Assembly: GCA_963678065.2 (NCBI GenBank)
Contig: CAXXVZ010000003.1
Coordinates: 1,472,001 to 1,536,000, forward strand
Source of the DNA: Treponemataceae bacterium
GTDB taxonomy: Bacteria > Spirochaetota > Spirochaetia > Treponematales > Rectinemataceae
Length of the DNA stretch: 64,000 bases
Direction: 5' to 3'
Positions 13,843 through 18,795 of this stretch are shown here, piece after piece. The notes under the pieces are model-generated. The model was given only the letters and a program-made list of their open reading frames with translations. It was not told the DNA's origin and did no database searches. The translations under genes were made by a program, and so were the position numbers. Position 1 is the stretch's first letter; each line of letters opens with the position of its first letter.

Positions 13843-14130
13843 ATGGCGAAAAAAGAAGAGATCGTCACGTTCAAGGCTGACGAGCGGCTCCTGGCCGCGC
13901 TCGAAGGGGTGGCCAACCGCTCGGCCTTCATCCGCGATGCCATCCTCGCCGCCCTCGAGAGCCGCTGTCCCCTCTGCCGCGGCACAGGAATTCTCAACGA
14001 GGAACAGCGCGGCCACTGGGAGGAATTTTCGCGTCACCACAGGATCGTCGAGTGCGGCGATTGCCACGCCTTGCATCTGATATGCGACGCCGAGGAGCGT
14101 CCTTTACCCCACAGCGAGCCTGAGATATAG
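13843..14130 (+). CDS. CopG-like ribbon-helix-helix protein with Cys-rich Zn-binding tail
   Basis: IVTFKAD...NRSAFIRDAI RHH pattern; CPLC and CGDC pairs. Confidence 0.6.
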   Translation: MAKKEEIVTFKADERLLAALEGVANRSAFIRDAILAALESRCPLCRGTGILNEEQRGHWEEFSRHHRIVECGDCHALHLICDAEERPLPHSEPEI

Positions 14131-16494: not shown

Positions 16495-16748
16495 TTGACA
16501 AACGAAAGCAATATGCTAACATTAAACACGTAAAGAAAGTTGGGTGTTTGAGAGATTTCATAAAGTTCTGCGGAATCAAAAAGTTGTCCGTTTCAGTCCG
16601 AATGTCTATCAACTGTTGTAGGATTTAATCATTGTCTGTTTCGTTTCATACTTTTTGCCCAGGCTTGTGATTTCTTTCAAATGCTCCAACTCTCGAAAAT
16701 CAGCCAGCACTCCTGAGTTGAGTGTCAGAAAAAAAGTAGGAGCACAGT
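16495..16748 (+). promoter_or_regulatory. Sigma70 promoter plus long structured 5'UTR, copy 1
   Basis: TTGACA-N16-TAACAT; long hairpin 16535-16694; small hairpin 16707-16726; AGGAG RBS. Homologous to 17990-18244. Confidence 0.7.
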
Positions 16749-17243
16749 ATGAAAAAGTCAGAGCTCATCGCCGTCGTCTTCACCCTCGTCGCCGCCATCT
16801 CTTCCTTCGCAATCGTCGCCAATCCGACCGTCGCTTCGGTCAGCATCAGCGGCTCCGTCCTGCCGGTCCTGAGCGTCGCGGTCAGCAACTCCACCGTCAC
16901 CGTCGCATCGCTCTCGGATACAGGCGGGTCCATCGACCTCGGAAAAGCCACCTTCATCAGCAACTACAAGTCCTGGAAGGTCACCTTCTCCTCGGCCAAC
17001 GGTGGCAAGCTCAAGCACTCCGATTCCGCTGTTTCCGACGTCATTTACTACAACTTCACCGCGGGCAGCATGGTCTCGAATGTCTCTCTCTCGGGAGCGC
17101 AGACGGTCAACATGACTACGAAGACCGCCAAGGGAGGAGATGAGTACGCGATGGGCGTCGTTTATTCCGCCAACAACTCCGCCAACTACCTGACCTCCGG
17201 CGTCTACTCCGACACCATCACGATCACGGTCGCCTCGAACTGA
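16749..17243 (+). CDS. Secreted Csu/spore-coat-U-like pilin subunit, copy 1
   Basis: Signal peptide, beta-rich Ser/Thr/Val sequence, C-terminal GVYSDTITITV motif. Confidence 0.6.
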   Translation: MKKSELIAVVFTLVAAISSFAIVANPTVASVSISGSVLPVLSVAVSNSTVTVASLSDTGGSIDLGKATFISNYKSWKVTFSSANGGKLKHSDSAVSDVIYYNFTAGSMVSNVSLSGAQTVNMTTKTAKGGDEYAMGVVYSANNSANYLTSGVYSDTITITVASN

Positions 17244-17297
17244 TCCAGCGGACGGCCCGCCGGGCCGGACACCGGGGGCCGTTCCCGAAAAGGCGAA

Positions 17298-17885
17298 CTA
17301 TTCGCCCTTGACCGGAGGGAAACCCCTGCGGAATTTGCGGCGCATGACTATGGCATCGGAACAAGATCCCTCGGAACTAGGGAAGAAAGCCTTCATCGTG
17401 CCGGTCTCCGCGAAGCCTTCACTCAGGTACATGGATCGGGCCCGCACCCATCGGGTGTTGACGACGAGGAGTTCTTCGCGGATTTTCGGGACGGATTCCA
17501 TGATTTGCTCGCGGGCAGAGCGGAAAAGCGACTTCCCCGCACCGGTACCGCGGAGGGAAGGATGGATAGTGAGCGAGGCTGTGTAGAGGACGCTTCCTGA
17601 AGGATCGAAGCGCTCGCGGGCAGCATGTCCGAGACAGAAAGCCCGGGAGTAATCCGCTTTCGCGGGGATAGCCTGCCAAAGCTCGGAGCAATAATAGCCG
17701 AGAACTTCGCCGCGGCCTGAGGCTCTGAGCACGAGGAAGCCTTGCGGGAACACTTCGAGCCGTTCGCGGAACACCGACTCCGCTTCGACGATCGCGCTGT
17801 CGAATCCTGCACGTTCCAGTTCCATGATCGCGGGAAAATCGGCCGGAAGCGCATGATCCAGGAAAAGCCCCTCATGAAAATCCAT
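17298..17885 (-). CDS. GNAT-family N-acetyltransferase
   Basis: LTIHPSLRGTGAGKSL acetyl-CoA motif and A..MY..EGF; probable start 17885. Confidence 0.75.
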   Translation of the reverse strand: MDFHEGLFLDHALPADFPAIMELERAGFDSAIVEAESVFRERLEVFPQGFLVLRASGRGEVLGYYCSELWQAIPAKADYSRAFCLGHAARERFDPSGSVLYTASLTIHPSLRGTGAGKSLFRSAREQIMESVPKIREELLVVNTRWVRARSMYLSEGFAETGTMKAFFPSSEGSCSDAIVMRRKFRRGFPPVKGE

Positions 17886-17989
17886 AGAGGGGAGCATGCC
17901 GGTTTCGCCCATGATTTTCAAGCCGAAGCGCCGCAGAGCGGCGCGCATGCCGAATTCCGAAAGATTTTCATTTTTTTTGAATTCCGGTA

Positions 17990-18244
17990 TTGACAAAACT
18001 TGGCCATATACTAATATTAGTTTTGTAAAGAAAGTTAGAGGTTTGAGAGATTTTAGAAAGTTTTGCGGGAATCAAAAAGTTTTGTGTCATTCCGATTGTT
18101 TATCAACTGTTTCAAGATTTAATGATTGTAGGGCTTGTTGTATACTTTTTGACCCCGGCTTTTGATTTCTTTCAGATTCTCCAACTCTCAAAAATTTAAC
18201 CGGCACTCCGGAGTTGAGTGTCAAAAAAAAAGTAGGAGCGCAGT
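17990..18244 (+). promoter_or_regulatory. Sigma70 promoter plus long structured 5'UTR, copy 2
   Basis: TTGACA-N16-TAATAT; hairpin 18030-18189; small hairpin 18202-18222; AGGAG RBS. Confidence 0.7.
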
Positions 18245-18727
18245 ATGAAAAAGTCAGTCGTCATCGCCGTCGTGTTCGCCCTCGTCGCCGCCATCTCTTC
18301 CTTCGCCGCCACAACCGGATCTGTCGCAGTCAATGGGACCGTCCTGCCGGTCCTGAGCGTCGCTGTCAGCAATGCTTCGGTCACGGTAGCATCGCTCTCG
18401 GATACAGGCGGAACCGTCGACCTCGGAAAGGCCACCTTCATCAGCAACTACAAATCCTGGAAGGTCTCCTTCTCCTCGGCCAACGGTGGCAAGCTCAAGC
18501 ACTCCGATTCCGCTGTTTCCGATGTCATCAACTACACTTTTACCGCGGGCAGCCTGGCTTCGAATGCCTCTCTTTCGGGAGCCAAGGAAGTCAACCTGAC
18601 CACGAAGACCGCCAAAGCTGGCGATGACTACGCGATGAGCATCACGTATGGCGCCAACAACTCCACCAGCTATCTGACCTCCGGCGTCTACTCCGACACC
18701 ATCACGATCACTGTCGCCTCGAACTGA
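18245..18727 (+). CDS. Secreted Csu/spore-coat-U-like pilin subunit, copy 2
   Basis: Close paralog of 16749..17243 with long identical DNA stretches. Confidence 0.6.
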   Translation: MKKSVVIAVVFALVAAISSFAATTGSVAVNGTVLPVLSVAVSNASVTVASLSDTGGTVDLGKATFISNYKSWKVSFSSANGGKLKHSDSAVSDVINYTFTAGSLASNASLSGAKEVNLTTKTAKAGDDYAMSITYGANNSTSYLTSGVYSDTITITVASN

Positions 18728-18763
18728 TGAGCTGATTCTCTGACGGCGTCATGGCCGAACACG

Positions 18764-18795
18764 AAGGGTCGTCCCGAAAGGGACGGCCCTTTTTT
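18764..18795 (+). terminator. Intrinsic terminator
   Basis: AAGGGTCGTCCC-GAAA-GGGACGGCCCTTTTTT. Confidence 0.85.

Follow-up and report, generated by a model that had tools for sequence, protein, structure and literature searches.

We analysed a window of 64,000 nucleotides from a Treponemataceae bacterium (contig CAXXVZ010000003.1, positions 1,472,001 to 1,536,000), in which two paralogous pilin genes are each preceded by a long, structured 5' leader. Our reading, to which we give about a one in two chance, is that these leaders are the long members of a lineage-specific class of structured leaders of pilin mRNAs, in which the word (A)AAAGU would be read in single-stranded form by a factor acting in trans, so that the leader would serve as a multi-site post-transcriptional operator. 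Enrichment, strand, position, frame independence and clade restriction of the motif were computed, as were the predicted folds. AAAGU, not the long hairpin, is the informative feature of the leaders. The original prediction had described the hairpin and a switch close to the ribosome-binding site; it was largely right about the former, not about the latter.

The sigma70-type promoter of paralogue 1 (16495..16522, + strand) has its -35 box TTGACA at 16495-16500, an extended -10 TG and the -10 box TAACAT at 16517-16522; judged by the spacing the transcript would start near 16529-16530. It is followed on the same strand by leader copy 1 (16530..16748), which has 39% GC in a genome of ~59% GC, by paralogue 1 (16749..17243), coding for a chaperone-usher pilin of 164 aa with a Sec-type signal peptide, and by a GC-rich hairpin without a U-tract (17250..17284) as a possible 3' end signal. 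The second unit, likewise on the + strand, consists of a sigma70-type promoter (17990..18017; TTGACA at 17990-17995, TAATAT at 18012-18017), leader copy 2 (18025..18244; 36% GC), paralogue 2 (18245..18727; 160 aa, chaperone-usher pilin) and an intrinsic terminator (18763..18792). Between the paralogues lies a GNAT acetyltransferase gene on the - strand (17298..17996, start uncertain), for which no connection to the leader element was shown. As had been predicted, the promoter spacing is identical in both genes (TTGACA-16-TAnnnT at 16495/16517 and 17990/18012), and the AT-rich leaders of ~220 nt are homologous with 83% identity (184/222). The coding sequences are 84% identical (418/495) while identity in the flanks drops to ~50%, and thus the duplicated unit spans the -35 box to the stop codon. 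In the 5.27-Mb genome nhmmer, blastn and a covariance model detected two copies of the leader and no third. Synonymous differences between the paralogues (16749-17243 vs 18245-18727) are patchy, with one run of more than 20 identical four-fold sites, which is consistent with gene conversion between them. Elsewhere in the window, a small ORF with a ribbon-helix-helix and a zinc finger (13843-14130) is divergent from argG/argH-like genes.

Both leaders are represented in RNA libraries. Metatranscriptome run X17 yielded an RNA contig at 16587-16848 over leader 1 and contigs at 18041-18231 and 18202-18308 over leader 2; in a second RNA run the cover was restricted to parts of the coding sequences. 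The contigs fit transcription of both leaders, a type of data that cannot map the start. Neither RNA run covered the GNAT gene or the two promoter regions, an absence that by itself proves nothing. Strain differences in leader 2 include, among those listed, 18087, 18114 and a deletion of the bulged 18152, all of them outside the outer stems. Another RNA-library contig of run X17 (record 11) matches a third pilin type, and its loose end fits P0003; the sample thus contains a related paralogue or species.

Each of the two pilin genes carries five AAAGU sites. With this number they rank first and second of 4003 called genes, a set from our own gene caller, which misses AT-rich genes. In copy 1 (+ strand) sites 1-3 are located at 16536, 16562 and 16580 (16536..16584). 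Sites 1-3 of the two leaders are predicted to be open in short nascent RNA and mostly paired in the finished hairpin, with unpaired probabilities of 0.4-0.9 in transcripts up to 90 nt and of at most 0.32 at 165 nt. Site 4 at 16733 abuts the Shine-Dalgarno sequence (SD) AGGAG at 16738-16742, and site 5 at 16754 lies in codons 2-4 behind the start codon at 16749 (16733..16758). In copy 2 (+ strand) the corresponding positions are 18031, 18057 and 18076 for sites 1-3, and 18229 for site 4, 18234-18238 for the SD, 18245 for the start codon and 18250 for site 5 (18229..18254). Sites 4 and 5 are predicted to be single-stranded in both leaders, with unpaired probabilities of 0.82-0.97. Genome-wide AAAGU is not enriched in leaders (196 vs 179 occurrences of the reverse complement), and the only 230-nt windows with five sites are those of the two pilin genes. 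The third pilin of the genome has retained AAAGU despite a different peptide start, MRKV. Rank three in the genome for AAAGT is held by a lipoprotein-like gene at C4:83238 (- strand) with four AAAGT sites upstream, two of them within a GGAAAAAGTG direct repeat. On C5, a low-GC island holds identical AT-rich stretches near 800167 and 827045, ~27 kb from each other; the listed contamination of the assembly is 6.7%.

The pilin leaders of relatives are built alike: a sigma70 promoter is followed by one or two hairpins, and AAAGU stands at +1, between the hairpins, beside the SD and in the first codons. Five of these leaders (116-140 nt) combine a shorter 5' hairpin with an SD-proximal hairpin as in the window. 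In 97 pilin upstream regions of 130 nt AAAGU was observed 81 times, while 200 dinucleotide shuffles gave an expectation of 22.8 ± 4.6 and a maximum of 39; such counts overstate independence because the relatives are kin. In the same regions AAAGU is on a par with TTGAC, and ACTTT occurs 23 times. Densities were calculated for the 59 leaders with a called promoter, 4/63 having been left out as doubtful calls. They amounted to 13/kb in the leaders and 50/kb in nucleotides 1-18 of the coding sequence, compared with 0.9/kb in promoters, 2.8/kb further upstream, 0 in coding nucleotides 19-45 and 0.6/kb for the reverse complement in the leaders. The strand bias was 61:3 in leaders and 53:0 at the starts of coding sequences.

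AAAGU is present in coding nucleotides 1-18 of 80/103 pilin-like genes vs 55/4003 genes of the window's genome, and after dereplication to <40% identity in 24/33 genes. All three frames are used (61/13/4 of 78). Starts of the type ATG-AAR-AAR-T are written with AAA-AAG in 60/60 pilins vs 18/107 non-pilins from five relatives, and 12/12 MKKL pilin starts use TTR. In eight genes AAAGU is located between SD and AUG. The 18 non-pilin ATGAAAAAGT matches are a mixed group of mostly exported proteins without a leader pattern.

Dereplicated pilin leaders contain AAAGU in 17/21 cases, control leaders of the window's genome in 4/63. The pilin leaders of relatives are also more often structured (z < -1.64 in 17/21 vs 16/60 controls), with a mean z of -2.8 vs -1.25 for 60 of the 63 controls. 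A subgroup of 14 short leaders showed covariation at 7/14 pairs with a score reached by 0/500 shuffles, the structure having been drawn from the alignment that was tested; RNAalifold gave a consensus in this subgroup only and none for 24 mixed short leaders. Twelve pilins that were fetched later had an upstream site in 4/12 and a CDS-start site in 8/12 cases, some of the starts being probably miscalled. In some relatives the sites are predicted to be partly paired, with a mean unpaired probability of 0.41-0.78 per base. One genus (L063-L077) has AAAAUGU or AAAACGU as the middle motif instead of AAAAGU, and the true consensus may allow one inserted base. Taken together, an operator-like pattern of AAAGU on pilin mRNAs is well supported statistically by these comparisons of sequence.

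The motif is largely restricted to part of the family. Flagellin was found in 29/69 family genomes and CsrA in 28/69, the eight genera concerned being identical. Both searches came up empty for the window's genome and for 39 others, many of which are incomplete MAGs; csrA gave 0 matches in the window's genome and none in the motif-bearing genera. Pilin-like genes are present in 35/40 flagellin-less vs 4/29 flagellated genomes (39 vs 7 with a deeper profile). As an outgroup we took 19 pilin-like ORFs, drawn from flagellated genera and, irrespective of flagellin status, from other families. AAAGU was seen upstream in 1/19 and at the CDS start in 2/19; it is thus a mark of sigma70-driven pilins in the group without flagellin and CsrA. 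Six of the 19 fit a strict form of what we take to be the sigma54 promoter pattern. The outgroup pilins, many with sigma54-type promoters, constitute a built-in negative control. The loci from flagellated genera and other families (L171-L183, L012, L014, L021) mostly show sigma54-like TGGCAC-N5-TGC promoters and short leaders without AAAGU, suggesting a swap of the regulatory mode.

The strand bias, the restriction to the transcribed part and the placement between hairpins argue for recognition of AAAGU at the level of RNA. From here we infer a putative sequence-specific trans factor, most likely a protein, along with repression and any role of the hairpin. Sites that abut the SD, lie between SD and AUG or in codons 2-4 would be inside the footprint of the 30S subunit; because they lie under it, a bound factor should repress pilin translation, a sign of regulation that is read from site position only. 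Most likely, binding would repress translation in the way CsrA does at multi-site targets. The 160-nt hairpin at the 5' end would probably stabilise the mRNA. It buries three sites, which would be exposed only during synthesis of the first ~100 nt, and may in this way tune the loading of the factor. More tentatively, we consider that a new AAAGU-reading, sequence-specific RNA-binding regulator may control the chaperone-usher pilins of a lineage that would have lost flagella and CsrA, with the 160-nt hairpin of this genome as a co-transcriptional latch. Factor loading within the first ~100 nt would then commit the mRNA to OFF, and closure of the hairpin would lock it ON.

Among the options in the original prediction protein binding fits best, though via the repeated AAAGU word, which it had missed. 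Proteins with an RRM or a PUR domain and SpoVG were rejected as the factor, AAAGU being absent from the leaders of their own genes. RRM proteins are encoded in 66/69 and PUR-domain proteins in 67/69 genomes; in three genomes RRM genes lie within ~6 kb of a pilin-like gene, with no shared gene order. A scan for sRNAs by seed produced nothing convincing, and no non-coding AAAGU cluster that might act as a multi-site sponge stood out in the window's genome beyond the pilin leaders. The RRM-protein genes have long leaders of their own with recurring hairpins (CGCCCTRGGCG, TTCSGRAAG; C3:1847030-1847350 and L129-L132) and a motif before the start codon that is common across genera, a candidate conserved cis-regulatory RNA. 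A CGCCCTAGGCG hairpin like those of the RRM leaders is found in the pilin leader of L090.

Among the sequence-specific RNA-binding regulators of bacteria, few have had their target word defined. Here comparative genomics provides the word, the target class, i.e. pilin mRNAs, and the lineage, in which no flagellin or CsrA was found. Together they open a direct route to the factor by pull-down with wild-type vs mutant leader, in common environmental spirochaetes that carry expanded sets of chaperone-usher pilins.

The closest parallels are the multi-site targets of CsrA, hag of Bacillus subtilis and flaB of Borrelia burgdorferi (PMC4066749). Like targets of CsrA/RsmA as that source presents them, the window leaders are structured, and a short word recurs in them around the SD of an mRNA for an abundant surface-filament subunit. 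Unlike those targets, the word is AAAGU instead of A(N)GGA, and csrA was not found in this genome. In another spirochaete, Leptospira interrogans, the ligA/ligB leaders contain two identical RNA thermometers (PMC4166951). As there, a structured leader is duplicated in the window and precedes paralogous genes for surface proteins; the window differs in that the SD is free in the predicted fold, that Rfam gave no match and that the genes are chaperone-usher pilins. Literature searches for an AAAGU motif in spirochaetes or bacterial RNA-binding proteins found nothing, subscription papers being mostly outside their coverage. Searches for chaperone-usher pili of spirochaetes returned no relevant paper, and those for pilin mRNA leaders and bacterial RRM motifs nothing on AAAGU or these pili. 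In the text available from PMC11086051, AAAGU occurs only inside a flaB probe. By these searches the AAAGU operator-like pattern is undescribed.

The long hairpin extends over 16535..16694 in copy 1, with the 5' arm at ~16535-16584, a variable inner region and the 3' arm at ~16650-16694, and over 18030..18189 in copy 2, both on the + strand. The small SD-proximal hairpin GCACTC-N7-GAGTGT follows at 16707..16725 and 18202..18222 (+ strand). The pairing of the arms, the 2x2 U-U loop and the small hairpin had all been described beforehand and are present in both MFE folds, with SD and AUG outside of either hairpin. For the hairpin by itself, the limits of which were picked after the fold was known, z was -5.2 in copy 1 (0/150 shuffles) and -2.7 in copy 2 (1/150); for the whole leader it was -2.96 (2/200) and only -1.14 (27/200), respectively. 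The sense strand of the hairpins is 10-15 kcal/mol more stable than the antisense strand. The claim that pairing is kept between the copies held for most of the 23 outer-stem pairs, 19 being identical, 2 having changes on one side and 1 a double change, and failed for one broken pair. The copies do not share a fold over the inner ~65 nt. Within the inner loop (16600-16635 / 18095-18130) the blocks TATCAACTGTT and GATTTAAT.ATTGT are identical across copies despite the differing predicted folds. The arms vary at 12/97 columns vs 18/65 of the inner region (p=0.02); compared with four-fold CDS sites (14/81; p=0.40) they are not clearly more conserved. Selection on the hairpin arms is thus suggested, not proven.

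The absence from known families was confirmed: Rfam gave no match at gathering score in the window and none up to E=10 for the leaders, and detected only tRNAs in 15 loci of relatives. Nor is the element a mobile repeat, as it has just two copies, stems that depend on G-U pairs and a sense strand that folds better; a MITE or insertion-sequence remnant was ruled out since there are no dispersed copies with terminal inverted repeats at the DNA level. The covariance model of the two copies that had been proposed as a check had 0 matches in 68 relatives. Run on 24 loci, its best non-self match was an unrelated intergenic hairpin (E 0.03), followed by the long leader of L008 (E 0.4). When 69 family genomes were searched by blastn for counterparts of the long hairpin, only short matches at chance level came up, and metagenome scans found no relative. 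Because no orthologue was found in 68 family genomes, covariation of the long hairpin rests on two copies, a comparison in which the leaders of the closest proteins (P0003-P0006, 51-71% identical) had no part. Taken by itself, the long hairpin is specific to this genome, where it occurs twice, and of modest interest.

The leaders might instead be built for constitutive high expression, with the 5' hairpin as a stabiliser and AAAGU plus A-runs as a positive element, i.e. a translation enhancer or a protection of the 5' end, and no switching at all. Major pilins require high output, and A-rich starts favour initiation. Both MFE folds leave SD and AUG open, and AAAGU stands at or beside +1 in many leaders (24 sites within the first 10 nt among the 59 leaders). 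Yet a general enhancer would be expected on other genes as well, which conflicts with the low count in control leaders. The exact GU is kept in three frames, and the MKK starts of non-pilins show no preference for it. We regard this design as doubtful.

The second fold put forward in the original prediction, in which CAACUC of the 3' arm pairs with GAGUUG at the small hairpin, is complementary but costly: forcing the helix took +8.1 and +6.4 kcal/mol in the two copies and the pair probabilities were ≤1e-4. Even in the forced fold AGGAG is essentially open, so that the two folds would not control ribosome access. The suggestion of a thermometer is unlikely because the SD is unsequestered in the MFE fold. 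An RNA thermometer of the Lig type was rejected on the predicted fold; the opening cost was 3.5 and 3.0 kcal/mol at 37 °C and 6.1 and 3.4 kcal/mol at 10 °C. What stands of that proposal is an undescribed, structured cis-element on pilin mRNAs, transcribed, in two copies and without Rfam match; the specific two-fold switch does not.

A different co-transcriptional latch is conceivable. Occupation or removal of the 5' arm would free the 3' arm to pair across SD and start codon (OFF); otherwise the long hairpin would lock the mRNA ON. The stretch able to pair in this manner (16668..16691, + strand) is strong in copy 1 only. With the 5' arm of copy 1 blocked or deleted, the predicted cost of opening the initiation region rose from 4.6 to 14.4 kcal/mol, a coupling reached by 2/60 and 2/140 nulls with permuted stem pairs. 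The opening and later burial of sites 1-3 would also suit a latch, and the long leader of L007 was borderline (12/150 nulls). On the other hand, copy 2 (23/60) and five further leaders, medium or long (119/150, 120/150, 59/150, 146/150 and 127/150), showed no coupling above the null, and the swap onto SD and AUG exceeded the null in 1/8 leaders only. Moreover, complementarity to the initiation region partly follows from a 3' arm that is complementary to the AAAGU repeats. Such a latch is unlikely.

In leaders of the TRAP/HutP type, one arm of a long hairpin bears a series of repeated short sites, and the 5' hairpins of pnp and ompA provide a long 5' stem as a stabiliser or RNase III site. The window hairpin, with repeated sites in one arm and a long 5' stem, resembles both. 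It differs in that a search of the leader brought up no terminator/antiterminator pair and in that the alternative fold lacks conservation. A pnp-like RNase III processing site that sets the half-life of the mRNA, with the motif being secondary, is improbable. RNase III is encoded in the genome and the outer stem offers 18 near-contiguous pairs followed by the 2x2 loop and a further helix, but the stems contain many G-U pairs, bulges and register shifts between the copies, and this reading would not account for the AAAGU sites of short leaders or of codons 2-4. Finally, that AAAGT is a DNA operator or a site of a nucleoid protein with the hairpin as a by-product, or that the hairpin is neutral after recent duplication or gene conversion, is very improbable: leader and coding sequence are about equally identical and some of the spacings between sites group near 21-24 and 39-46 nt, but the strand bias, the depletion from the promoter, the better fold of the sense strand and the fewer differences in the arms than in the inner region speak against it.

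The operator reading concerns genes that are chaperone-usher pilins by their modelled pilin beta-sandwich fold and signal peptide. An AlphaFold model of paralogue 2 based on an alignment of 85 sequences had a pLDDT of 95, and Foldseek matched it to Csu (E 9e-5) and CfaB (E 9e-5). Pfam gave no match above cut-off for the window pilins, SCPU being below threshold. In the ESM Atlas matches were found in Spirochaetota clusters and one SCPU cluster, and a relative with 44% identity carries the name 'Rectinemataceae bacterium'. The window pilins share the fold of archaic/alternative chaperone-usher pilins (CsuA/B 7ZL4, CfaB 4Y2L, CupE 8CIO) and match their profiles weakly; unlike these, they have ~17% identity to them, fall below the Pfam SCPU threshold and are encoded ~860 kb away from the assembly operon. 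This operon of the same genome (C3:2349864-2353886) comprises a chaperone, an usher-like ORF and an adhesin. PapD_N was over the cut-off, and the usher match in the adjacent 815-aa ORF had an E of 1e-4, below the Pfam cut-off. The operon is preceded by the third, divergent pilin with the MRKV start, which our gene caller had missed. The whole pilin-chaperone-usher-adhesin operon (C3:2349110-2353886; L136, L109, L110) is AT-rich, and translations inspected by eye indicate an IS110-like transposase, an integrase beside a tRNA-like stretch and a phage-coat-like ORF as neighbours. In relatives the pilins form arrays, at L104 beside chaperones and an usher. At L103, L105, L106, L133 and L137-L139 the arrays often follow a lysA-like gene (identified by eye) directly or adjoin a tRNA gene, and each arrayed pilin at these loci has its own promoter and terminator.
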